DNA from: a phage
Length of the DNA: 64,000 nucleotides
Reading direction: 5' to 3' (one strand)
Sequence record: PZ445134.1
Each line of letters opens with the position of its first letter. The first letter of the stretch is position 1. A program made the translations under genes and the position numbers. The notes beneath the pieces were generated by a model. That model did not search any database. It was not told the DNA's origin and was given only the letters and a program-made list of their open reading frames with translations. Positions 1,220 through 64,000 of this stretch are shown here, piece after piece.

Positions 1220-1852
1220 TCACAGTACGTTAGTTACAAGGGTAATGATTTCTTTGGACACATTAGGGAAGTCAATGTAAGTATATTTACCACCGATCTT
1301 AATCTTAACATCATTTTCAAGAGAAGTAAACAGCTTTGATTCAGTTTCTGACATGTTGTATGCAAAGATTCTAAGAGAACCATTTCGACGAATTTCGATC
1401 TGACGAATACCTAGAACTCGTTTTGCAAATCGAACTTCCAAGTTACTACGGTTTTCACCAATTTCTTTAACTTCAACTTTATCTTTAATATTTTCAAAAA
1501 CAAAGTTTGCTAGTTCATGCATTTCAGGAGTAACTCCACGTGCTTTTCTGGTGTTACGTTTCTGAAGAAGTTCTGGAGCATTTTCTTGGGCAAAGAGGTC
1601 TGCAGCTTTTTGGATAATATCCATTGCTTCGCCTGTTGCTATAAGTCCATCACCAGATTTTTCGACTAAACCTTTCTTAATCAATACACCAATGTTAGAG
1701 TTAACAACTGATGCATTGTATTCCGCTTCCAGAGCTTCACGGACATTGGCAGCAGTGGTGAAGTTGTTCTTAATGATATAAACCATTATTGCAGCAGTTT
1801 TTTCATTCAGAGCGTTTTCAGAAGCTTTGATGATGTAAGTAACTTTAGACAT
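1220..1852 (-). CDS. motA: MotA, middle-promoter transcription activator
   Basis: 210 aa; N-terminus MSKVTYIIKAS... and overall length match T4 MotA as recalled; RBS GGAGAAAT upstream. Confidence 0.85.
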   Translation of the reverse strand: MSKVTYIIKASENALNEKTAAIMVYIIKNNFTTAANVREALEAEYNASVVNSNIGVLIKKGLVEKSGDGLIATGEAMDIIQKAADLFAQENAPELLQKRNTRKARGVTPEMHELANFVFENIKDKVEVKEIGENRSNLEVRFAKRVLGIRQIEIRRNGSLRIFAYNMSETESKLFTSLENDVKIKIGGKYTYIDFPNVSKEIITLVTNVL

Positions 1853-1889
1853 TTTATTTCTCCAAATTAGTATTTGTTTTGATAGGTCT

Positions 1890-1918
1890 ATAATATCATG
1901 TTTGAAGCAAAAGTAAAC
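1890..1918 (-). promoter_or_regulatory. early/middle-type promoter upstream of motA (GTTTAC, 17 nt, TATTAT; MotA-box-like TTTGCTTCA in spacer)
   Basis: minus strand reads GTTTACTTTTGCTTCAAACATGATATTAT; sigma70-like spacing. Confidence 0.55.
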
Positions 1919-1955
1919 TTTATTTTGGGCTCTTTTTCAAAAGCCCTGGTAAAAT

Positions 1956-2171
1956 TTACAAACTCATTTCTTTAATAAGGCTAATAAGTTTTGCCTTTTT
2001 AGAACGAAGCTTTTCTAAATGATGTCCATTTGAACCACGAACCACTAAAGAATTGATTTCAACTTCTAAGAAATTTAATTCTTCAACAAGTGCTTTACGT
2101 GGAGCATTCATACCAGGTTTAACTTTACCAAAACGAGTAGTTGTGTTTTGGGTTAATTTCATTTTAGACAT
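1956..2171 (-). CDS. hypothetical basic protein (71 aa)
   Basis: ORF track; own promoter cassette upstream; start region nearly identical to motA start region. Confidence 0.5.
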   Translation of the reverse strand: MSKMKLTQNTTTRFGKVKPGMNAPRKALVEELNFLEVEINSLVVRGSNGHHLEKLRSKKAKLISLIKEMSL

Positions 2172-2210
2172 TTTATTTCTCCAATTTGGTTGTTTTGTTT
2201 TGATAGGTCT

Positions 2211-2239
2211 ATAATATCATGTTTGAAGCACATGTAAAC
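2211..2239 (-). promoter_or_regulatory. early/middle-type promoter, near-identical copy of the motA promoter cassette
   Basis: minus strand GTTTACATGTGCTTCAAACATGATATTAT. Confidence 0.55.
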
Positions 2240-2261
2240 TGTTTTGTGAGAAAAAATGCAC

Positions 2262-2283
2262 AAAAAGGAACCCGAAGGTTCCT
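2262..2283 (-). terminator. intrinsic terminator (UUCG tetraloop hairpin + U-run) downstream of gene 52
   Basis: minus strand AGGAACC-UUCG-GGUUCCU followed by UUUUUG. Confidence 0.55.
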
Positions 2284-2383
2284 TACTTTTTAAAGTGAGC
2301 TGCTATTAAACCTATAGCTAAGCCCGTTGCCAGGCCTAGGATAACAGCAAAGATACAGAGTAACAAGAACTCGACTCCAAGGC

Positions 2384-3709
2384 TCATAGAGCCTCCAAGT
2401 CTTTAGTGTACTCTGTCACAACATCAGTAGACTTCCAATACTCATTTTCTTCTTTCTTAGCTTTAGCTTCTTCTGCCAGTTTACGCGCTTCGTCGGAAGT
2501 GATATGGAAGATGTTAAGGCCTACCAGTTTATCGACATGTTCTTTATACATTTCGATTTGTGCTAGCTCTTCAGTCAAAGCTTTACGAGTCTTGCCCTGA
2601 ATCACAATTTCACCGTTGATAACTTTTTTGATGAAGTGTGCCTTAGCAAAAGCAAGTTTAAATGCTTTTTCGGATTCAAGGATTTTGTTGTCAATACGTT
2701 TCTGAACGTAAGTCTTACGGACTTCAACAAAATCTTTGATTAAGTCCACTACGTTATCGTAGACAGCTAATTTACCCTTTTCATTAATCACTGTGATATT
2801 TTGTGAACGACGTTCGATGAGACTAAAATCTTTCATGATTTTTTCATGACGTAGCTCTTCATCATCAGGAAGCGAGTACTCTTTACGGAACTTCACTTTA
2901 AACCCAAAGCCGTGTTCACCACAATCATCTTCCCATGAGATTAGACCTTTGTCTTCCAATGGGTCAAGAACCTTACTCACATATGTTTCACGGTCGAATT
3001 TATATGGGATTTCAGTTATCTGCATTTGAGTGCGAGATGTGAACTTATATGTTCCGTGAATCTCATAACGTCCATCAACTTCATGTACTTCACCACGGAA
3101 TTCCGGGAATTCAACTTTTGGCTTAGTGACATTTTTACCTTGAAGAGCTTGTAATACAGCCTTTTTGACTGATTTAAAACTATGAGGCAGAATATTTGTT
3201 GCGTAACCGGTTGCAATACCAGAGACACCATTCAAAAGAACTGTTGGAATAATAGGAAGATAGAATTTTGGTGGAATGTGTTCTTTATCTTCATGAGCTG
3301 GAGCATATTCAGTATCTTTATATACGTTATAGAAATTTTTACTTACACGAGCAAAAATATAACGAGATGCTGCAGCTTTTTGGACTGTTCTAGAACCAAA
3401 GTTGCCTTGGCCATCTAACAGTGGATAGTTGTTGTTCCATGTGTTAGCCATCAATGCACCTGCATCTTGTGCAGAAGATTCACCATGGTGATAACCTAAA
3501 TCTGCAACACCGCCTGCAATTGACGCAAGTTTATGAAATTTTTCTTTATTACCACGAGCCAAATCTAACGCACGATGAACCACAAAACGTTGAACCGGCT
3601 TAAATCCATCAATCATGTTTGGGATTGCACGGTTTTCAACGGTGTACATCGCATATGCTAAGGCTTCGTTATCAATAATACTTTTTAGATTACGAGAATT
3701 CAATTCCAT
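2384..3709 (-). CDS. 52: DNA topoisomerase II medium subunit (GyrA-like)
   Basis: 441 aa, same length as T4 gp52; position between motA and ndd. Confidence 0.85.
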   Translation of the reverse strand: MELNSRNLKSIIDNEALAYAMYTVENRAIPNMIDGFKPVQRFVVHRALDLARGNKEKFHKLASIAGGVADLGYHHGESSAQDAGALMANTWNNNYPLLDGQGNFGSRTVQKAAASRYIFARVSKNFYNVYKDTEYAPAHEDKEHIPPKFYLPIIPTVLLNGVSGIATGYATNILPHSFKSVKKAVLQALQGKNVTKPKVEFPEFRGEVHEVDGRYEIHGTYKFTSRTQMQITEIPYKFDRETYVSKVLDPLEDKGLISWEDDCGEHGFGFKVKFRKEYSLPDDEELRHEKIMKDFSLIERRSQNITVINEKGKLAVYDNVVDLIKDFVEVRKTYVQKRIDNKILESEKAFKLAFAKAHFIKKVINGEIVIQGKTRKALTEELAQIEMYKEHVDKLVGLNIFHITSDEARKLAEEAKAKKEENEYWKSTDVVTEYTKDLEAL

Positions 3710-3713
3710 AATT

Positions 3714-3854
3714 TTACCATACTAGTGAATGAATAGCCATAATAACATCGGAAATAAAAAGCACAACTTGAATTATCCCGAACATTACTCCATAATACAG
3801 CGCTACCAATAAAGCAGCAAGGGCTAACGAGTAGCCCAAGATTTTATTAATCAT
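3714..3854 (-). CDS. small hydrophobic membrane protein (46 aa from internal ATG)
   Basis: ORF track 62 aa from TTG; internal ATG overlaps the stop of the upstream small ORF (AATGATTAA); single TM-like segment; ac-region by synteny. Confidence 0.35.
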   Translation of the reverse strand: MINKILGYSLALAALLVALYYGVMFGIIQVVLFISDVIMAIHSLVW

Positions 3855-4008
3855 TTTTAATCGTCTTAAGTAAACCGACAAAAGTAGAAAGAACCCAACC
3901 AATAAGCAGAAAACTTAAGAATATCGGACCAGGGGCCCACACACCTAAAAAGAAGCAAACCGAACAGACTATAGCCGTAATAAGTTCAATAAAAACTACG
4001 ATAATCAT
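3847..4008 (-). CDS. small hydrophobic membrane protein (53 aa)
   Basis: hand-translated MIIVVFIELITAIVCSVCFFLGVWAPGPIFLSFLLIGWVLSTFVGLLKTIKND; RBS GAGGA upstream; below ORF-track length cutoff. Confidence 0.35.
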   Translation of the reverse strand: MIIVVFIELITAIVCSVCFFLGVWAPGPIFLSFLLIGWVLSTFVGLLKTIKND

Positions 4009-4094
4009 ATTTTCCTCATTAGCGTCCGAAGACGCCTTTAGTTTTAAGATTGTTACGATAGAACTGCATCACATGTTCGTTATGGAAATACTCA

Positions 4095-4541
4095 TTAGTA
4101 AGCCTGCAGGATGAATTTAAAGTTATCAGCCAACATACGGTTCATTTCAGTGAGTGTTTGATATTCTGATGTATGATTGCGAGTGAATGCCAGAGCCAAT
4201 TGACCTTTACCATAACCAGTGGTCAGCGGTTTCATGTTCTTAGCTGCAACAAAGATTACATCGTATTCAATATTGTTAGTGCCCATAGTACGGGCTAGTT
4301 GCGAACGACCTTGACGAATGTGAGAAAGAATTGCATCCAACCCTTGTTTAGAACGTTGACGTCCTACAAAGAATCGTGCTGCTACTTGTCGCCAATCAGA
4401 TGAACCTTTAACAAAGAAGTAAAAACCTTCACGAGAACGAAACTCTTTAGAAACTTCAGAACCGTATTCGCCATTACGAACTACTGCAACAACTTCACCA
4501 CCAACTGCCAGAAGGTCTTTACGAGTTAAATATTTAGACAT
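4095..4541 (-). CDS. ndd: Ndd nucleoid disruption protein
   Basis: 148 aa; C-terminal half ...[34 protein letters not shown] matches T4 Ndd as recalled. Confidence 0.75.
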
Positions 4542-4617
4542 GCTAATTTCCTCAATTGATTAATGTTTTTGTAATCCATGAGAGCATTATACTCTGCTCT
4601 CAAGAGTTTGTACAATT

Positions 4618-4818
4618 TTATTCGGTTATATCAGAACGTTCAAAAAGCTCTTCAACAGTTAAACATTCGGTGTCATCCTCAATAAAGAATCGGGTCCAAC
4701 ACGTTGGGGCGATGCAGTTATGAGTTTGGCCAGCTATAGAAGCTACACGAATAAGCTGCTGGCCATTATTCAGGACAAATTTTTCACCAATTTCAACATC
4801 TTTAAAAAGCTTAGCCAT
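4618..4818 (-). CDS. hypothetical protein (66 aa)
   Basis: ORF track; promoter cassette upstream. Confidence 0.4.
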   Translation of the reverse strand: MAKLFKDVEIGEKFVLNNGQQLIRVASIAGQTHNCIAPTCWTRFFIEDDTECLTVEELFERSDITE

Positions 4819-4846
4819 TTTGTATTCCTCATGTTTTGATAGGACT

Positions 4847-4876
4847 ACTATACCATAATCCTACCTTGATGTAAAC
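4847..4876 (-). promoter_or_regulatory. early-type promoter (GTTTAC ... TATAGT)
   Basis: minus strand GTTTACATCAAGGTAGGATTATGGTATAGT. Confidence 0.4.
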
Positions 4877-5068
4877 AATTAAATTACATTAAAATATGTT
4901 AAAGCCAACCATGTTCCAGTGAACGAACATGCGATGTAAAAACCCGTATCGCAAATTGTTCTTAGTACAATAAGAAGTGCATTTTTCATAAGTACCTCAA
5001 TACAATTGAAAATATTATACAAATCATAGGGATACTAAGCAACCATATTCCGATCCACATTTTAGAAC

Positions 5069-5332
5069 TCATATCTCAACTTCCGCGAGTTCCATATATC
5101 CTTTGTTGATAACCTCTTTAAGGTCTTTAGAAAGAATAACATTAAAATGGTCGTTCATATGTCCATTAACTAAACGAGTTATTTCGGCTTCAGATGACAT
5201 ATAAGGCACGTCTGAGTCCCAATGAGATAGACCCAAATGGGTATAAATCATCCCTTCGTCATCTGCAGTGTTGTACATTGAAACAAATTCGCCTGTTACT
5301 TTATGTTTTGCGTAGAAAAATTTAAATTTCAT
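5069..5332 (-). CDS. hypothetical protein (87 aa)
   Basis: ORF track; promoter cassette upstream at ~5350-5390. Confidence 0.45.
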   Translation of the reverse strand: MKFKFFYAKHKVTGEFVSMYNTADDEGMIYTHLGLSHWDSDVPYMSSEAEITRLVNGHMNDHFNVILSKDLKEVINKGYMELAEVEI

Positions 5333-5400
5333 GATGTTATCCTCTTTTAGATAGGACTACTATATCATAGTCCTACTTAGTTGTAAACACTTTTATGAAA

Positions 5401-5958
5401 TTAAAGATGAAGATACCAGCCGTTGTAGTTGCTCTTGCGGACGATTTTCTTTAGGTCTTCATGGTCTCCCACGAACTTTATAGAATAAGAGAAGACGTCA
5501 GGTGAGGTTTCTTTGACATTCAATATAATAATACAGTCTGCAACTCGATGATTCAGGAATGGCCCTATGTTGATTCCGTTGCCACCCGGATAATCACCAC
5601 TGTATCCTGTGGTAACAGAAATCCATTTAGAATCCATCTGATGTGTCTTGACTTCTACACGAATTCCACAATATTTGGGATGGGCTAACACGTCCCATGC
5701 ATACGTGTACGGGTCTTCTACGTCTTCAATACCTTTATTAACATATCCGTCTAGCCAATTTGCTACTACATACTCTGCAAAGACCGCAACCTTACAACGT
5801 CGAACTACATCTTCTTTGTTTTGGTCAGGATTTTGGCTCAGGGAATACCGAGCAGTGTCAGCAATCTTCACCTTCATTTCACTAGTCAAAAACTCATTCG
5901 ACAGGATAAATGTCGGAAGATTCTTCAGTCTCAACAGTCCCAAGTTCGTCTTTACCAT
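5401..5958 (-). CDS. denB: probable endonuclease IV DenB (185 aa from internal ATG)
   Basis: position between ndd and rIIB; refined start at ATG with RBS AGAGGT gives 185 aa, the T4 DenB length; ORF track start at 6021 is probably a non-ATG extension. Confidence 0.45.
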   Translation of the reverse strand: MVKTNLGLLRLKNLPTFILSNEFLTSEMKVKIADTARYSLSQNPDQNKEDVVRRCKVAVFAEYVVANWLDGYVNKGIEDVEDPYTYAWDVLAHPKYCGIRVEVKTHQMDSKWISVTTGYSGDYPGGNGINIGPFLNHRVADCIIILNVKETSPDVFSYSIKFVGDHEDLKKIVRKSNYNGWYLHL

Positions 5959-6181
5959 AGATACCTCTGATGTGTAGTTCGCCAAAATAAATGCGGTCTC
6001 CTTCTTCAAGATAGTTAGCATCTACCGGTGGGATTTCAATAACAACTTCGTCGCATTCTAACCAGCCGTAGTGTGCATCACCAGGATGTTTTACCAATTT
6101 AGCGCAATAAACTGATTTACACTTATGATGACCACGAAGATTAGCAATTTTGGATTCTGATACGTCAAATGGATGAATCAT
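5894..6181 (-). CDS. hypothetical protein (95 aa)
   Basis: ORF track; overlaps refined denB start by ~65 nt. Confidence 0.4.
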   Translation of the reverse strand: MIHPFDVSESKIANLRGHHKCKSVYCAKLVKHPGDAHYGWLECDEVVIEIPPVDANYLEEGDRIYFGELHIRGIYGKDELGTVETEESSDIYPVE

Positions 6182-6222
6182 AATTACCCCTAAAGAAAAA
6201 AAGGGACCGAAGTCCCCAATTA

Positions 6223-7158
6223 TTATTCTGCAAATAATTCAGTAACGTCTGAAATTACTTCATAACGACAAGTACGCATCTTAGCATCACCATAGTCAAC
6301 CGGGATGGATACAACATCACGTGGATGAACTTTAACCTTAACAACTTTATCTGAGCTTGAACCAAAGTGGCGAATATAAGATTTAGCACAAACGTGGAGA
6401 CCGCGAGAACAGGTTTGAGTATCATCGTCGTTAACTCGAGTACGAGGCATTGAAACAACTTTACCTGGGGAGTTATCAAATGTGCCGCTATAGCAATCTA
6501 AATAGTCTTTACGAACTACTTTCCACGCATAGAAATGCCCATCTTCAGTGATTTCAATATCGTTTGCAACCAAGAAGTCGAATAAACGTTGTACAGCTTT
6601 TTCACTTGGGTTTTCTAACAGGTTTTCAAGGAACGGCAGATAGAATTTAAAGTCTTCGCCTTTTTCCATGGAATCAATAATACGATTAACCAGTCCTGAA
6701 CGAATTTCTATACCTTGATAAAATAAACTACCACCTTCAATAGTAACATTACCATCAACAAACTTACTAATAGCTTTCTTGATGTTAATAAGTTCGACAG
6801 CTTTACTAAGGTTTCCTGCGACCAGATTAGCTTTAATTTCTTCAAAATTTGCATGACTTGATGGGGTCGCATTGTATGCTACGCGTCCTTCAATAATTGA
6901 AATAAATTTAGATGACGCGTTCCATACGATTTCTGGACGATGTCCGCCGATAATAGGTTCATCATTTTCTGGAACCTGTTCTTCGTCTTCAAATTCAGCG
7001 GCTTTCTCTTCAGCTTTAAAATTCTTAACAATCTTACGAAGAGTGTCAGTGGAAATATTGAAGTAATCAGCAATTTCCTGACGAGTCCATTGGCCTGATT
7101 TAACCAGATCGTAAGCTTCTAACTGTTCTTCTTGAGACAAGCATTTAATATTGTACAT
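6223..7158 (-). CDS. rIIB: rIIB rapid-lysis/exclusion protein
   Basis: 311 aa (T4 rIIB 312); directly downstream of rIIA. Confidence 0.85.
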   Translation of the reverse strand: MYNIKCLSQEEQLEAYDLVKSGQWTRQEIADYFNISTDTLRKIVKNFKAEEKAAEFEDEEQVPENDEPIIGGHRPEIVWNASSKFISIIEGRVAYNATPSSHANFEEIKANLVAGNLSKAVELINIKKAISKFVDGNVTIEGGSLFYQGIEIRSGLVNRIIDSMEKGEDFKFYLPFLENLLENPSEKAVQRLFDFLVANDIEITEDGHFYAWKVVRKDYLDCYSGTFDNSPGKVVSMPRTRVNDDDTQTCSRGLHVCAKSYIRHFGSSSDKVVKVKVHPRDVVSIPVDYGDAKMRTCRYEVISDVTELFAE

Positions 7159-7167
7159 AATGTTTCC

Positions 7168-9381
7168 TTATTTGGCTGCTTCCACAGCCTTCATGAATTT
7201 AACGATTTGAGCGACTTGTTCTTTAGAAAGAGTACCACGTCGTCCCATGTATTCTGACACAATATGATAATTGGTTTCGAATTCAATAACCATTTTATCA
7301 TCATTATCGTAAGCATTATCTTTAAGCTTATCGAAAATTTTAGCACACAATTCTAACTTCCTGTTCAGGTCTCTGTTAGTAGCACCTGAGAATCGATTCC
7401 ATCCCCAACGATTATTTACTGATGAGAGTTTTGCAAAATCTTTACTGATTTCTTTGTTCTTAGAGCTAAAATACTTACTAAGGAAGTTAAGCTCTTCATT
7501 ACGAGTAATATGATTCAAATAAGGCTGTGCTCTACGACTTGGTGATACATACTCATCATAATCCACTTTATCAATTAGCGTAATATAGTCATTAATTGAT
7601 TTTTCGAACAAGCATTCTACTTCACCAAGTTTACGAACTTTCTTAGCGATCTGTGGACGGACTACAGTGAACTCTTTAATACCTGACAAATCAGCAATAC
7701 GGGTCAAGAAATTAGAGTCATAGTTCAACCAACCTTTATCTGCGTCAAGACATTCGGCATTAGAACGATTACGAACTATAGCATAACCTTGGATTTCATC
7801 AGCTTCACTCGCTGGAATAAAGAGATCTTCTGATACCCAAACATCGTTTTCATTCTTAAAGAACCGATGAGCACTCGGGGATTTAGGACGAGGCCCATTA
7901 GAACGAGTCTTGACTTCAATCCATGGCTTAACGATTTGTAAAAGCTCTGAAGTCTTGTACATGTTAATGGTGTCGCCATCAAAGATAACTTTAAGGCGTT
8001 CCAGAAGTTTCATTGCATCTTCGTCTGTAGGGTCAACGAATAGTACGCTTTTACCAAAACCGCGTGGAACTTTACCGGTTAATTTAACCTCGTCTTTAGA
8101 CATTTCAATTGAATTAAGAGCTCGCATTAATGGAACACGTCCCTTAACGTCGTCAATAACAATTTCAACGTTTTTAATGTTAATGCCAATCAGACTGTTA
8201 ATTGAAATAGTTGCAGATGAGCTACCACTTTCACGAATACGACGAAGACGAGGGTCTTCAATGATATCGTATACGACGCCGAGATTACACCATTCAGGTC
8301 CCATTTTAAAACGTTTGTACAACTCAGAATAAGTTAGTTGTTCTTTAGAGTATTTCAGTGATTCAATATTAGACCCGGCCTTTTCCATGTATTTACGAGC
8401 TGTATAGCCAAGAGAATCAATTTCACGGAACACATGACGCGGGTATTTACAATCAATCCATTTCTTAGAATCTTCAGCGAACAATTTAGCATCGATTTCT
8501 GCAACGCGTTTATGGATATTTGCTACTGTACGTTTATCAAATGACAATGCTTCACGAGACGGGGCTACATCTAGTTCACCCATAGGGAATTTAATATAAG
8601 CTGTAGTGCATCGCGTCATCATCCATGTTTGTTCTTTAATAACACTTCCAATTGGATATACAATACCACCATAAACAGCCATGATATTACCACGTTCACC
8701 CCATGGAGCTTCCTTGGCTAAATAAACATCATCGAATTCCGGGAAGTATTTAATATCTTTAACACCACGAACTTCTGCAATATCACCTAGAGGACGCATA
8801 ACATATGCAATTTCAGATGCGAACTTTTCAAAATCTTCTGGGTTAACAGGCACAACTACTTCAACGCCGGTCCGGTCATCAGGACCCATCTTATCTACAA
8901 AGGTTGGCTTAATCTGTGGACCTGTGTCATCTTGATAAATTACATAACCACGAACTTCACCGTTGTGATAAGACGTAAGGTTAAACGTATCGGTATATGC
9001 TAGTGGAGCTTTAGAACCGAGACCGAATCCACCAATGAAATCGTTACTCGATGTTTTAGTTGAAGCAAAATATGAGTTATAGATTCCTGGCTCTTCGTCA
9101 TTACCTCGAATGGTGAAATCACTCATACCAGGACCAAAGTCTCGAACTACAAAACGTGGATCTAAACGACCTGGCGCCTGAACAATAAACTTATCAGTGC
9201 AACCATTAAGAATTTGTCCATCGATACAGTTTGTGATTAATTCACGTACACAAGCCAATTCTTTGTTTGTATAAAGGTCGTTAGACAAAATCTTATAAAC
9301 TTTGCTATTGCCTTGAATAGTAAATGCTGTGCTCTTACCGCCTGAACCAATAATCGTTTCTTTAGCCGTTTCAATAATCAT
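7168..9381 (-). CDS. rIIA: rIIA protein (GHKL-like ATPase N-terminus)
   Basis: 737 aa; synteny with rIIB; N-terminal ATPase-like region. Confidence 0.85.
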   Translation of the reverse strand: MIIETAKETIIGSGGKSTAFTIQGNSKVYKILSNDLYTNKELACVRELITNCIDGQILNGCTDKFIVQAPGRLDPRFVVRDFGPGMSDFTIRGNDEEPGIYNSYFASTKTSSNDFIGGFGLGSKAPLAYTDTFNLTSYHNGEVRGYVIYQDDTGPQIKPTFVDKMGPDDRTGVEVVVPVNPEDFEKFASEIAYVMRPLGDIAEVRGVKDIKYFPEFDDVYLAKEAPWGERGNIMAVYGGIVYPIGSVIKEQTWMMTRCTTAYIKFPMGELDVAPSREALSFDKRTVANIHKRVAEIDAKLFAEDSKKWIDCKYPRHVFREIDSLGYTARKYMEKAGSNIESLKYSKEQLTYSELYKRFKMGPEWCNLGVVYDIIEDPRLRRIRESGSSSATISINSLIGINIKNVEIVIDDVKGRVPLMRALNSIEMSKDEVKLTGKVPRGFGKSVLFVDPTDEDAMKLLERLKVIFDGDTINMYKTSELLQIVKPWIEVKTRSNGPRPKSPSAHRFFKNENDVWVSEDLFIPASEADEIQGYAIVRNRSNAECLDADKGWLNYDSNFLTRIADLSGIKEFTVVRPQIAKKVRKLGEVECLFEKSINDYITLIDKVDYDEYVSPSRRAQPYLNHITRNEELNFLSKYFSSKNKEISKDFAKLSSVNNRWGWNRFSGATNRDLNRKLELCAKIFDKLKDNAYDNDDKMVIEFETNYHIVSEYMGRRGTLSKEQVAQIVKFMKAVEAAK

Positions 9382-57632: not shown

Positions 57633-58565
57633 TTATGATTTTAATGCATTCATTGCGTTAAAAAGTTTAGAGTACTGCAACTGGAGCTTGGTAACTACTT
57701 GTTGAGCATCACGAAGCTTAGCTTGTGCTTTGTCAAGTTCAACAGACAGTTGGTCCACAGTGGCTTTGATTTGATTATAATAGTAATCTTCGGCAGGAAG
57801 AAGACCGTTAGAGATTTCCAGTTTAGTCGACGGTGTGCCGTTAAACATAACAGGTTGTGCTGAAGCTGCATTAATCTTACCGATAGTCGGGGCGACAATA
57901 ATTGACGCTTCGAACGTTGCATTTTCCTTTTTAAGATTTTTATAATATTCAGAGTCTTTGTGCCACCATGGCGCAGGAACCTTTTTACCAATAGATACAC
58001 GAGCCTGGATAGCGATATGGCCCTTATTCTTGATAACGTCGATAATATTAAGCTCACGAGAATAAATTGCTTTAATCTGGTGAATATTATCACCTAACAC
58101 TTCCAACGCTTGGTGGAATACACGAGCAACGTTATCATTCTTAGGTTTATACGTAAGAGTGAACTCATTCTCACTGATAACCATGATTTCTAACTTATCG
58201 TAAGTATATTTCAAATGTTTCATGTTAATTGCTTGAGGACGAATACGAGAAGCAATGGCCATCAAATTGTTAAGGTTATTCCGGAACTGCTTAGCGAAAT
58301 ATTGTCCTTCACCGCCAATACAAAAATTACGAAGTTTCTGTTTGGCTAATAAACGGCTGAACTCACCATTTTTAATGAACTCTTTAACAGGTGTGTTAGT
58401 AACGCATTCAAATTGAGTAAACTTACGAGAAGTAATCCCATAATATGAACAGATTTCCTCAATCTCTTCAGGGGTCTTTACAGGCATACGGATAGGATTA
58501 GGTCCTGGAGTATATGCGTTCGAGGTAAATTCTTTGATAAGTTCTCTACGTGTAATAAAAGCCAT
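57633..58565 (-). CDS. hypothetical protein with C-terminal coiled coil (310 aa)
   Basis: ORF track; promoter cassette upstream. Confidence 0.5.
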   Translation of the reverse strand: MAFITRRELIKEFTSNAYTPGPNPIRMPVKTPEEIEEICSYYGITSRKFTQFECVTNTPVKEFIKNGEFSRLLAKQKLRNFCIGGEGQYFAKQFRNNLNNLMAIASRIRPQAINMKHLKYTYDKLEIMVISENEFTLTYKPKNDNVARVFHQALEVLGDNIHQIKAIYSRELNIIDVIKNKGHIAIQARVSIGKKVPAPWWHKDSEYYKNLKKENATFEASIIVAPTIGKINAASAQPVMFNGTPSTKLEISNGLLPAEDYYYNQIKATVDQLSVELDKAQAKLRDAQQVVTKLQLQYSKLFNAMNALKS

Positions 58566-60264: not shown

Positions 60265-60552
60265 CTAAAAGAAACTTTTTTCGGTATTTTTTCCACTGAA
60301 CCAAACCGATTTCGGAATTTTCTGTAATTTTTCAGATTTAAGTTTCTCTTCCTGTTCTTTCTTATATGCATCCTTGTCGTACTGGAACAACTCTAAGGCA
60401 TTCTTTTGTAGACGGTCTAAGGTAATTAAGGCTTTAGTTTTTCCTTTCAAGGAAGAGTCCTGGCGAACCTCCTCGCTATATTGCATCGTAGAACTAACCA
60501 TACGATGAGCATACAGTTCGACTGCGGCTTTAATTTTTTGCATAAAATCCAT
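60265..60552 (-). CDS. hypothetical basic protein (95 aa)
   Basis: ORF track; overlapping alternative ORF 60447..60653 not resolved. Confidence 0.35.
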   Translation of the reverse strand: MDFMQKIKAAVELYAHRMVSSTMQYSEEVRQDSSLKGKTKALITLDRLQKNALELFQYDKDAYKKEQEEKLKSEKLQKIPKSVWFSGKNTEKSFF

Positions 60553-60690: not shown

Positions 60691-61692
60691 TTATTTCAGT
60701 AAAGTAACTTCCGAGATTTCCTCCCAACCATCTTTATCAGTTGAAATAAAATCTGCTACGTAAAGAGCCGTACGTAATGATACATTGCGAAGACGAGATA
60801 CGTTAGCCTTCATCCAGGACAATGCTTTATACGTTTCTGCATCTGTCAGACCACGTTTCTGCATCATGTCAGTAGATAATATTACATCTTCAACTCGAAC
60901 CATAATCTCTTCATTAGAGTGTACTCCAAGGTCGAGATACACTGAACGAGATACTAAAGCTTGAAGGTGCGGGGCAAGCTTCGAACCGCGTTCTAACTCT
61001 TTATCGATATCAACGTTTGTAATGAAAACGATAGTACCTTCAAACTCAAATTCTTTATCAATACCCTTATCATCGAGATAAGATGACGCAGTGCTCCAGC
61101 AAACTTTGCGTTTATCTCCGGTATCTAATGCTGCTTTAAGAAGGTTCAAGATGTCCATATCTGAGAATACGTCAACGTCGTCGATTAAGAGAACGCTGTC
61201 TGCATCACGGTTGAGCCAAAGTTGTTCGTAAAGGCCAATACCGGAGATTTTACCATTAATGCTTTTGTATTTGATGAAACCATTATCATTAGCATTATTA
61301 AGTGCTTTATCCAGAGAATACGTCTTACCAATACCAGCTGCACCTGAAATAATGAGTGAACGAATTTTGCCATCGATAATGCCATTCGTCATCATGTTCA
61401 TTACTTTAAAGCGTTTGTTGATACGAGTTTTCATATCTTCAGTGCTTTCAACAACTGAAACTGGTGACGTCTCAGCTCCTTCCATTACGATGTCTGATTT
61501 GAAGACCCATACTCCACGTTCAGAACCATCAATCATAACGAAAATTTTACCATCACCTAAGTGGGAACATTCAGGATTAAGCTTTGCCGGAAACCATGTC
61601 TTTGTGGCAACATAAGAACCAGAGATTTCGTTATTACGATAGATACCTTTTTTGATTTGAACGTTGAACATTTTATTCTCCAATTTACTCAT
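60691..61692 (-). CDS. P-loop NTPase (Walker A/B) of unknown function
   Basis: 333 aa; Walker A GAAGIGKT, Walker B-like VLLIDDVD. Confidence 0.55.
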   Translation of the reverse strand: MSKLENKMFNVQIKKGIYRNNEISGSYVATKTWFPAKLNPECSHLGDGKIFVMIDGSERGVWVFKSDIVMEGAETSPVSVVESTEDMKTRINKRFKVMNMMTNGIIDGKIRSLIISGAAGIGKTYSLDKALNNANDNGFIKYKSINGKISGIGLYEQLWLNRDADSVLLIDDVDVFSDMDILNLLKAALDTGDKRKVCWSTASSYLDDKGIDKEFEFEGTIVFITNVDIDKELERGSKLAPHLQALVSRSVYLDLGVHSNEEIMVRVEDVILSTDMMQKRGLTDAETYKALSWMKANVSRLRNVSLRTALYVADFISTDKDGWEEISEVTLLK

Positions 61693-61740: not shown

Positions 61741-61959
61741 TTATTTGCGACGAGATTTTTTGGTAAGAGGTTGAAAGAACACTGCTTTACCTGCAGGAGT
61801 CAAAGTAACTCGTAATGCATTACCGATTCCCAAGGATGCTTTAACAAGACCTTTAGATTTCAGTTCACCGAATGCTTGACGTTGGTCTGCATCACGAGTG
61901 TTAACCATAAGACCTTTATCACCAGCTTCACGAATCATTTCTAACATTTTGGTTTTCAT
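61741..61959 (-). CDS. hypothetical basic protein (~72 aa)
   Basis: ORF track 61741..62016; internal Met after RBS AGAGGAA. Confidence 0.4.
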   Translation of the reverse strand: MKTKMLEMIREAGDKGLMVNTRDADQRQAFGELKSKGLVKASLGIGNALRVTLTPAGKAVFFQPLTKKSRRK

Positions 61960-62063
61960 TTTGTTCTCCTCTTGTTTTGATAGGTCTATAATAACATATC
62001 CTAAAAGTATGTACACTACTTTTTAAAAATATTTTGACCCCCTAAAGGGCCCTAAGGCCCTTA

Positions 62064-63053
62064 TCATTTATAGTATGAATTGTGGTTTTCTAAGTAGACT
62101 TGCTCAAGGAAGTCATCCCAGAAACTCATATCTACTTTTTGCTGCATACCATTCTTGGAAGCTTGTTCTGACGCATGTTCAACTTGGTCAACGATATCTT
62201 CTAGGAATTCTTGTACAGTTTTAAACGTATGTTTACCAAGCTTAACATCGAGAATAAATGGAGCATCCTGAAGTGGGTAAACCAGGTCGCCGGTTTTGTA
62301 AATTTCCAATAGTTGAAGTCCACCGCGACATGCATGACTCAGTGCTTTCCAGTCAATACCTTCGTTAGCTTCTGCCTTACGAGCACGTTCACCATAGTTC
62401 TCTTCCAGTTTAACCAGGATGGCATTGAACTCTTTATTGGTTAATGTGTCTTGGAATTTACGGTCCAACAGATTATAGAATGTTTGCTTACCTGTTTTCT
62501 CGTTTTCGGTTTCAACCCATGAAGCAAATTCACCTACAGGCAGAACATTCTTCATATGTGATAAACGAATTACTGCACCATTATCAAAGTATTGTCCCCA
62601 TTCATTAGAACGTTTAAGGGCTTGTCGAAGAACAGCCAGTCGAGAACCCTTGACACCATATTTAGAAGCTTGCTTACGGACATACCCTAAATAAGATTTC
62701 ATGTTAGTAGTATAGAAACGAGACCTGTTATCTTGAATATACTTCCACACGTCAGGCAAATCAGATTTAACTACTAAACTTGGTGGAGTGTGAAGCATAT
62801 CTAATGCGACAGTTTCACCATCCGCAGCTAGTTTAAAGAAATATTTGAGACTATACAACTCATGGTCCACGTCGTCTTTTGTGTTCTTAGAAGATGTGTT
62901 ATTCGTGTTCTTGCTCATATGTTCTTTAACGTTACCGGTCAAGATGTCACGAGCATGAGGGACATAAATTTCTTTAAAATCGACGTCAGATTCAGGAGTA
63001 GACGTTCCATAAAGGTGGCTACCAAAGTAGCCTTTCATAATTGTTTTCATCAT
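62064..63053 (-). CDS. predicted nucleotidyltransferase-fold protein (pol-beta superfamily-like)
   Basis: 329 aa; N-terminal GS-x9-DVDF (YFGSHLYGTSTPESDVDF) fits the minimal NTase motif hG[GS]...[DE]h[DE]h. Confidence 0.5.
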   Translation of the reverse strand: MMKTIMKGYFGSHLYGTSTPESDVDFKEIYVPHARDILTGNVKEHMSKNTNNTSSKNTKDDVDHELYSLKYFFKLAADGETVALDMLHTPPSLVVKSDLPDVWKYIQDNRSRFYTTNMKSYLGYVRKQASKYGVKGSRLAVLRQALKRSNEWGQYFDNGAVIRLSHMKNVLPVGEFASWVETENEKTGKQTFYNLLDRKFQDTLTNKEFNAILVKLEENYGERARKAEANEGIDWKALSHACRGGLQLLEIYKTGDLVYPLQDAPFILDVKLGKHTFKTVQEFLEDIVDQVEHASEQASKNGMQQKVDMSFWDDFLEQVYLENHNSYYK

Positions 63054-63523
63054 TTAGCCTTATATTCAAGAGTAGGACAGACTTTTTCTTTACGAGCTTT
63101 AAGGTATTCACCTATTAATGATTTCTTACGTTCAATAGGTTCAAGTCCATTTTTAATTCGTTCTTGGTTTTGTGCAATGAACTCAATTTCTTTATAATAT
63201 TTTCTGTCGTTATATTTGTCTAACAACCAAGACGGACCAATTACCAACACGGTAGCAATAAAAGCCATGACTGCTACAATTAAAATGCCTACACCAATTG
63301 AGGCTGGAACTAATGTCCATAGACTGCTAAAAACAAAGAATTTAGTTAAAATTTCCTGGCCAATGATTGTTACTGCTGCTAAAATCGCAAATCCAATAAT
63401 TGAAACAGCCAATACTGGGATTAACGTTTTCCAAAAATAAGCACACAACGTTTTCGGGCGATTCCATGTACTATTGAACGCGGCATAAATTTTAAAGTGC
63501 CAAGAGTTTTCATTGATAATCAT
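63050..63523 (-). CDS. membrane protein (157 aa, 2-3 TM segments)
   Basis: ORF track; hydrophobic core. Confidence 0.45.
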   Translation of the reverse strand: MIINENSWHFKIYAAFNSTWNRPKTLCAYFWKTLIPVLAVSIIGFAILAAVTIIGQEILTKFFVFSSLWTLVPASIGVGILIVAVMAFIATVLVIGPSWLLDKYNDRKYYKEIEFIAQNQERIKNGLEPIERKKSLIGEYLKARKEKVCPTLEYKAK

Positions 63524-63532
63524 AATAATTCC

Positions 63533-64000
63533 TTATTTCAAAGTCGGGATAATAGAATCAAGATAAGCTTTAAGAGCAACTGCTTCATCTTTGTCTAATG
63601 TAACGATATGTTGACGAAGGTCATCAATTTGACGAATAACTACGACATCACCATCTTCATAAGAAGGATTAACGCCTAAGACCGTTGTAGAGTCAGGGTT
63701 GGCTGGATTTGTAATAAAAGCATTACGGCATTTAGCCCATTGAAGTTTGGCCTTTTTGGCTGTTTCAGATTCCACGAATTCTTTCACCTTAGTGACGAAT
63801 GTTTTCCAATTATTAATAGAAAAACATTCGTCTTCAGTTTCGATATTAACACCACTATAAAGTCCATGATAAAAACGAACTTGAAGGTCTTCGTCAATGT
63901 TAATTACAGATGCATGGCCTGGTGGATTGAGTTTCAAAATCTTGTCAAGTTCCATAGGAAGAATAGTAGCAGCATCATCTTCTTGTGTCAGAACATACAC
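63533..64000 (-). CDS. hypothetical protein, 5'-truncated at window edge
   Basis: ORF runs to the window end; true start lies outside. Confidence 0.45.
   Translation of the reverse strand: MYVLTQEDDAATILPMELDKILKLNPPGHASVINIDEDLQVRFYHGLYSGVNIETEDECFSINNWKTFVTKVKEFVESETAKKAKLQWAKCRNAFITNPANPDSTTVLGVNPSYEDGDVVVIRQIDDLRQHIVTLDKDEAVALKAYLDSIIPTLK

Follow-up and report, generated by a model that had tools for sequence, protein, structure and literature searches.

The T4 enzymes Pnkp and Rnl1, which repair broken tRNA, gave the founding case of RNA repair used by a virus against host defence. In 2008, the wobble nucleotide's removal by the nuclease RloC was proposed to make tRNA damage irreparable by phages (PMC2610378), and in 2021, Iyer et al. 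predicted that phage RlaP proteins restore the nucleotides lost to RloC-like nucleases before ligation (PMC7824862). The subject here is a phage gene of the RlaP family, nrdC.11, from sequence record PZ445134.1. The stretch of phage DNA that was analysed, 64,000 nucleotides in all, is termed the window below; the gene lies at its positions 62064 to 63053.

Two canonical members of the family, PfRlaP and PaRlaP, whose genes lie between rtcB and rtcA, were characterised in a preprint of December 2025 (Carruthers, Fatma & Huang; PMC12776372). Both enzymes add one or two nucleoside monophosphates (NMPs, or the deoxy forms, dNMPs) to the 3ʹ-OH of RNA, with little specificity for the nucleoside triphosphate (NTP) and a preference for Mn2+; DNA and protein are not substrates. 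Both favour the 5ʹ half of a cleaved tRNA and, in a mimic of one, the 3ʹ end at the anticodon break; offered that end and the acceptor end together, PfRlaP prefers the former, and it labels full-length tRNA and rRNA as well. The two RlaPs also partly rescue aminoacylation of a tRNA that lacks one anticodon-loop nucleotide. The RlaP crystal structure consists of a nucleotidyltransferase (NTase) domain and a helical domain, with three catalytic Asp residues, described as "three strictly conserved aspartic acids." T4 NrdC.11 is listed in the same work as a member of Pfam family PF10127 "of unknown function," in similarity cluster 5 rather than the cluster 1a of canonical RlaP (PMC12776372).

Identity, family and predicted fold of NrdC.11

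The gene and the parts of its product discussed below are located as follows.

62064..63053, minus strand: coding sequence of nrdC.11, a long-form RlaP-family nucleotidyltransferase of 329 amino acids (aa), an ATG-to-stop open reading frame
62976..63029, minus strand: catalytic signature YFGSHLYGTSTPESDVDF (residues 9-26; G11-S12 and D23-x-D25), with invariant residues that align to GS...DxD of canonical RlaP
62865..62873, minus strand: D61-V-D63, with D63 the predicted third metal-binding carboxylate, on model strand 62-68
62661..63053, minus strand: residues 1-131, which comprise the N-terminal Pol-beta NTase domain with the first helices and are homologous to canonical RlaP
62358..62657, minus strand: subfamily-specific insertion (about residues 133-232) absent from canonical RlaP, modelled as a long helix (134-155), a three-stranded sheet (177-201) and helices (206-229)
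62325..62354, minus strand: C-terminal-domain motif D234-W-K236-A-x-S-H240-A-x-R243, a candidate NTP- or RNA-binding helix

This gene is nrdC.11 of an RB69-like (Mosigvirus) T-even phage. The DNA of the region is 97% identical to that of Escherichia phage RB69 and its Mosigvirus relatives, and the RB69 counterpart is nrdC.11/RB69p103 (NP_861793.1), with the RefSeq product name "nucleotidyltransferase." T4 and RB69 carry the same gene in the same place between nrdC.10 and mobD.1, and the T2/T4-type protein is about 79% identical in amino acid sequence to the window protein. Proteins that are 99-100% identical are already public as a nucleotidyltransferase or DNA polymerase beta superfamily protein with a precomputed PF10127 match. 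Through annotation and the 2025 preprint, both the gene as an NTase and its place in the RlaP family are part of the public record. An earlier, sequence-only reading of the window had placed the open reading frame correctly at 62064-63053 while leaving out its strand, which is minus, and had held that nothing more specific than an NTase fold could be called, a limit now superseded by identification of the known nrdC.11 gene and its PF10127/RlaP membership.

Matches to nrdC.11 were found by tblastn in 1,539 phage records, from T-even phages that infect Escherichia, Klebsiella, Shigella, Aeromonas and Acinetobacter and, at greater distance, Vibrio. Many GenBank phage records label the orthologues "thioredoxin" or "glutaredoxin"; the true thioredoxin gene, nrdC, lies about 6 kb away, and these labels were presumably carried over from the gene name. 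The gene, which had been placed in a "variable region," is not itself variable: it is kept across the Straboviridae, although its immediate neighbours vary between T-even lineages.

Membership in PF10127 (RlaP, "RNA repair pathway DNA polymerase beta family") is given by a score of 49.4 bits, where the gathering score is 23 (E = 6.3e-13), with a match that spans only residues 7-161 of the protein and positions 23-148 of the 249 in the profile. The threshold is passed by 65 of the 66 members of the NrdC.11 clade. PHROG 388, "nucleotidyltransferase," matches over the full length (E = 1.9e-126). A broad homologue search returned only near-identical Mosigvirus copies, and the diverse relatives came from a search of representative clusters: 3,219 related clusters at E <= 1e-3 and 743 at E <= 1e-30. 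Nearly all of the best 150 clusters are proteins of about 300-350 aa that align end to end, with few fragments. Because PF10127, PHROG 388, 1,539 phage records and 3,219 clusters all match, the N-terminal signature goes far beyond a chance motif. PADLOC yielded no match for NrdC.11, and NCBIfam gave nothing beyond a sub-threshold match to the motif of MntA.

Conservation was read from an alignment of 66 diverse relatives with 35-53% identity. The invariant residues are G11, S12, G16, S22, D23, D25, N57, Y132, K236, R243 and G273; conservation is at least 90% at D61, D63, D85, D234, W235, H240 and P260. The N-terminus of the window protein reads MMKTIMKGYFGSHLYGTSTPESDVDF, in which G11-S12 is followed by D23-V-D25 10 residues on; in the raw sequence, gtc at 62985-62987 gives the codon GAC for Asp23 and atc at 62979-62981 gives GAT for Asp25. 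Together, G11, S12, D23, D25 and D63 make up the catalytic set of Pol-beta NTases, in which hG[GS] and DxD are joined by a third carboxylate from a later strand. Judged by these residues, NrdC.11 is predicted to be a catalytically intact Pol-beta nucleotidyltransferase.

An AlphaFold2 model built from the 66-sequence alignment has a predicted local distance difference test (pLDDT) value of 94.1 and a predicted template modelling (pTM) score of 0.85. Its strands 3-10, 24-31, 45-49 and 62-68 make up the beta-alpha-beta-beta-beta core of an NTase, with the GS pair at the N-terminus of a helix, D23 and D25 at strand 24-31 and D63 on strand 62-68. After the core, from about residue 100, come helices, the three-stranded sheet at 177-201, more helices and a long terminal helix (309-328). 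In a Foldseek search of the PDB, weak matches were obtained to KNTase (1kny; E = 9e-4), 3c18, Hailong HalB, Tam41 and MNT, and fold matches were limited to Pol-beta NTases and HEPN-like helical bundles, which correspond to the two domains of KNTase-type enzymes; no solved structure is close. When the PDB was searched by sequence, no relative came up for the protein or for the profiles of the clade and of canonical RlaP, in a copy that does not seem to include the PfRlaP crystal structure. The Pol-beta-superfamily fold proposed from the sequence alone is therefore upheld by the invariant GS and DxD, the conserved D63, the confident model and the nature of the matches. The core beta-sheet, on whose presence that proposal had been made to depend, appears in the predicted structure. 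The accompanying description of about 270 aa of helical domain after the motif is too simple, in that the four-stranded core extends to about residue 100 and the sheet at 177-201 lies within the helical part.

In a fold search of BFVD, short phage NTases of 234-287 aa align over the whole model, with target-normalised template modelling scores of 0.55-0.75. The same search returned baculovirus HE65/ORF132 proteins at ranks 37-39 and 50 as weak full-length structural matches (E = 2e-3 to 0.1), a modelled likeness that hints at an RlaP-like NTase module in HE65.

These matches bear on two further ideas of what the protein does. The first is synthesis or mimicry of a signal, either nucleotide or oligonucleotide, in the manner of a CD-NTase, of OAS or of the oligo-dA synthase HalB, against host signalling defence. 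HalB (9dbh) is among the fold matches, with 16% identity to NrdC.11; it is a protein of 217 aa whose product, long oligo-dA, serves as a signal in defence, and its partner is the HalA channel, which has no counterpart at nrdC.11. Membership of the CD-NTase, cGAS or OAS families was rejected, as the required CD-NTase, SMODS or OAS match in sequence or fold, together with an effector partner, was not found. Signal synthesis or interference, one of the roles first suggested for this protein, finds no support in sequence, fold or context, and we consider it very unlikely.

The second idea is that NrdC.11 transfers a nucleotide to protein or to a small molecule, in the way of MntA, DrrA, GlnE and KNTase/Lnu, for example by AMPylating a host defence toxin. 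Kanamycin nucleotidyltransferase/ANT(4ʹ) and related two-domain NTases (1kny, 3c18, LinB) are among the known systems nearest to NrdC.11; modification of small molecules of the aminoglycoside or lincosamide NTase type was judged unlikely, and protein is not a substrate of the two canonical RlaPs. The idea as a whole is improbable. Comparison with MNT/HEPN systems, which had been recommended, gave no support either. The NCBIfam MntA model scores 12.9 bits against a cut-off of 60 and matches residues 9-26 only. An MNT antitoxin was further ruled out by length (329 aa versus about 100-140 aa for a minimal NTase) and by the lack of a HEPN match among the neighbours, and the conserved C-terminal order K236...H240...R243 is not the Rx4-6H of HEPN toxins in type VII toxin-antitoxin systems.

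A long subfamily beside canonical RlaP

Canonical RlaP is, like NrdC.11, built of an N-terminal NTase domain and a helical C-terminal domain that ends in a long helix, but it is shorter, at about 255-275 aa versus about 320 aa for the NrdC.11 type. It is also the type with demonstrated activity, whereas activity is attributed to NrdC.11 by analogy. Both types are set within RNA-repair operons.

In a profile-profile comparison (hhalign), the match to canonical RlaP is significant for residues 3-131 only (probability 93%, E = 3e-7). Within it, D23/D25 pair with the canonical DxD (D49/D51), G11/S12 with G37/S38, and D63 with D88, the invariant Asp of the canonical motif "lDxNGWD"; D85 pairs with an invariant Glu. 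Beyond it, the spacing of K236-x3-H240-x2-R243...P260 equals that of the canonical K-x3-Y-x2-R...PP, which places the K-x3-[HY]-x2-R helix and the following Pro motif of the two types in register. Direct alignment of the C-terminus by itself returned the predicted register at E = 0.15-0.25, which is not significant. When residues 133-232 were removed, the alignment reached 151 columns in that register and entered the C-terminal domain. The spliced global score of 37.7, against 23.8 +/- 4.9, was reached by none of 80 controls with shuffled C-terminal columns; local extension by itself was seen in 7 of the 80, and the splice point was chosen post hoc. We picture the NrdC.11 type as canonical RlaP with insertions at two places, about residues 40-60 and 133-232, a view that has support but falls short of proof.

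NrdC.11-type proteins are a distinct long subfamily within RlaP, a division added by the present analysis. Among phages, canonical RlaP was found in 80 records, all from jumbo phages and none from T-even phages; T-even phages therefore carry only the long form. In cells, the two types meet. At 19 cellular loci, a long and a canonical RlaP gene are adjacent, often overlapping, on the same strand, and they are therefore paralogues with probably distinct roles; the arrangement suggests either such a division or a heteromer.

Repair neighbourhoods and the proposed role in tRNA repair

A scan of one genome per prokaryotic species gave 80 cellular loci of the NrdC.11 type, with 33-52% full-length identity, many of them on megabase chromosomal contigs. 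Neighbours were recorded within 6 kb, and census seeds were verified with Pfam. The counts are as follows.

Any RNA-repair gene near the NrdC.11-type gene: 33 of 80 loci; 22 of the 48 in which each flank spans 3 kb or more
Canonical RlaP: 21 of 80 loci, directly downstream on the same strand in 19
RtcB: 9 of 80 loci
Bacterial Pnkp: 8 of 80 loci
Hen1: 7 of 80 loci
Ro60: 4 of 80 loci
RtcA: 2 of 80 loci

An unbiased Pfam census of 148 flanking genes singles out canonical RlaP as the sole strongly recurrent neighbour. Pnkp-ligase/Hen1 and RtcA recur less, with counts like those of unrelated families such as ABC transporters. Three loci illustrate the arrangements.

L054 (2088-7802): Hen1, Pnkp, long RlaP, canonical RlaP
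L028 (Nitrosospira; 1558-9161): Ro60, RtcB, RtcA, long RlaP, canonical RlaP, Hen1
L007 (a 4-kb contig of a metagenome-assembled genome): an NrdC.11-like gene, then a T4-type Pnkp (kinase and HAD phosphatase), then a T4 Rnl1-type ligase

L028 and L054 are among the loci with adjacent long and canonical genes. The closest "cellular" relatives, at 49-52% identity, are L003:4141-5334 (a Bacilli metagenome-assembled genome) and L004:7779-8702 (Flagellimonas). Their flanking genes, for a C5 DNA methylase and a TET-associated glycosyltransferase, are typical of phages whose DNA is modified, and these contigs are probably prophage or phage sequence and not chromosomal repair loci.

On the phage side, RB69 carries pseT and rnlA, the genes for Pnkp and Rnl1, about 80 kb from nrdC.11. 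Counts of phage records per genus are nearly identical for Rnl1 and NrdC.11, which is consistent with co-inheritance, though confounded by phylogeny.

RNA or tRNA repair, which the sequence-only reading had offered as one candidate role among several, is favoured by the assignment to the RlaP family and by the RNA-repair genes near which relatives are encoded. By analogy, we infer that NrdC.11 would share the activity of bacterial RlaP, act on tRNA and work with Pnkp and Rnl1. The broad form of this claim, that NrdC.11 is an RNA-end-directed NTase linked to RNA repair, is likely. Its specific form, that the enzyme restores one or more nucleotides on nuclease-trimmed tRNA before sealing by Pnkp and Rnl1, is proposed with moderate confidence.

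In the proposed mechanism, the substrate would be a host or phage tRNA that has been cut and shortened by "trimming" anticodon nucleases such as RloC. Phage Pnkp (pseT) would first turn the 2ʹ,3ʹ-cyclic phosphate into a 3ʹ-OH and phosphorylate the 5ʹ-OH. NrdC.11 would then extend the 3ʹ-OH end of the broken RNA without a template, by one or a few NMPs taken from NTP, with two divalent metals held by D23, D25 and D63 and the RNA lying in a cleft that the NTase domain forms with the helical C-terminal domain (K236, H240 and R243). Phage Rnl1 (rnlA), a 5ʹ-phosphate ligase that needs a 3ʹ-OH, would finally seal the break. Nucleotide addition to a 3ʹ-OH has been noted to suit the phage ligase better than RtcB (PMC12776372).

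The same chemistry could instead be directed at a different substrate, namely the acceptor (3ʹ-CCA) end of tRNA or other RNA 3ʹ ends, with NrdC.11 repairing or tailing them after trimming by a host nuclease or toxin, possibly together with a CCA-adding activity. This idea draws on divergent viral relatives. A scan of viral contigs with the L007 query gave only 7 loci. A CCA-adding-type or HD gene abuts the NrdC.11-type gene in 3 of the 9 divergent viral loci examined:

L083 and L090: the NrdC.11-type gene overlaps a gene for a PolyA_pol head (class II CCA-adding type)
L085: an HD phosphohydrolase gene, which resembles the 3ʹ-end-healing domain of bacterial CCA enzymes, follows the NrdC.11-type gene

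Labelling of full-length tRNA and rRNA by PfRlaP, with little NTP specificity, points the same way (PMC12776372). However, it is systems for sealing breaks (Pnkp/Hen1, RtcB/RtcA and T4 Pnkp with Rnl1), and not CCA enzymes, that accompany the clade most often, PfRlaP chose the anticodon-break 3ʹ end rather than the acceptor one (PMC12776372), and no CCA-type gene lies near nrdC.11 in the window. Class II CCA-adding enzymes and poly(A) polymerases (PF01743) perform template-independent addition to an RNA 3ʹ-OH, as proposed for NrdC.11, and are encoded beside NrdC.11-type genes in some phages, but they form another family of the same superfamily with a different body and tail domain architecture. 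NrdC.11 is not one of them: the suggested comparison with tRNA nucleotidyltransferases gave no PF01743 match at E <= 1, whereas the neighbours of its relatives do match. Action at acceptor ends is unlikely, if less so than either idea discussed with the fold.

Several points weigh against restoration of trimmed tRNA by NrdC.11. The biochemistry comes from two canonical, short RlaPs of another similarity cluster, in a single preprint that is not peer reviewed (PMC12776372). Significant similarity to canonical RlaP ends at residue 131, and homology of the C-terminal half, supported but not proven, rests on the post-hoc splice test and the coverage in fold searches. The pairing of long and canonical genes suggests that the two are non-redundant, so the long form may act differently. 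No RNA-repair neighbour was seen in the available flanks at 47 of the 80 cellular loci, many of which are short contigs. In the phage itself, nrdC.11 is not adjacent to pseT or rnlA, and its neighbours are without assigned function. Finally, T4 survives a deletion from nrdC.11 to mobD.3 in the laboratory, which is expected for a counter-defence gene and equally for a dispensable one.

The nrdC.11 locus and its meaning for T-even phages

Two further features adjoin the gene.

63050..63523, minus strand: upstream gene of 157 aa, "membrane protein" in RB69 (RB69p104), with a TGA stop that overlaps the nrdC.11 ATG (ATGA)
62036..62062, minus strand: G+C-rich terminator-like hairpin directly after the nrdC.11 stop, terminator-like on both strands, a consensus match

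The overlap of stop and start codons indicates that the 157-aa gene, which has no Pfam or PADLOC family, and nrdC.11 are probably co-translated. A "terminator" is annotated at the equivalent of the hairpin in phages WFL6982 and WFK. In a promoter and terminator scan of the window, however, site counts were not above those in shuffles, and the hairpin is therefore a consensus match only.

In RB69, the gene is flanked by nrdC.10 and RB69ORF102c on one side and by the membrane-protein gene and then mobD.1 on the other. The immediate neighbours, RB69ORF102c and the ORF104c membrane protein, are without a T4 counterpart in the RB69 annotation. All of the following window genes are on the minus strand. 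RB69ORF102c (61741-61959), which encodes 72 aa from its ATG and has no family match, is separated from nrdC.11 by the hairpin. Two genes downstream of nrdC.11 is nrdC.10 (60691-61692; 333 aa), which has a Walker-A motif, GAAGIGKT, and may encode a P-loop NTPase; its sub-threshold matches are AAA_22, AAA_16, nSTAND3 and HTH_37, and PADLOC gave only a chance-level match to SspF. Further neighbours match recently defined Pfam families without assigned function: T4_y05I_N/C, "putative transcription factor," for mobD.1 (63533-64000); DUF7235 for nrdC.5 (57633-58565); and DUF7203 for nrdC.9 (60265-60552).

What the present analysis contributes is modest and adds context rather than discovery: the architecture of the long subfamily, the placing of its genes beside those for canonical RlaP in repair operons of cells, and the direct cluster of NrdC.11-like, Pnkp and Rnl1 genes on the L007 contig. 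A more far-reaching possibility is that NrdC.11 is the missing third enzyme of T4 tRNA repair, which with Pnkp and Rnl1 would restore the wobble nucleotide excised by RloC, and that the roles of the long and canonical forms are complementary, in the ends or the nucleotides they handle or as parts of a heteromer. This proposal is tentative, with a chance that we place rather below even. About 1,500 sequenced phages, many therapeutic candidates among them, carry the gene. If NrdC.11 does restore the missing nucleotide, T-even phages would already hold an answer to the RloC damage that has been thought since 2008 to defeat repair.

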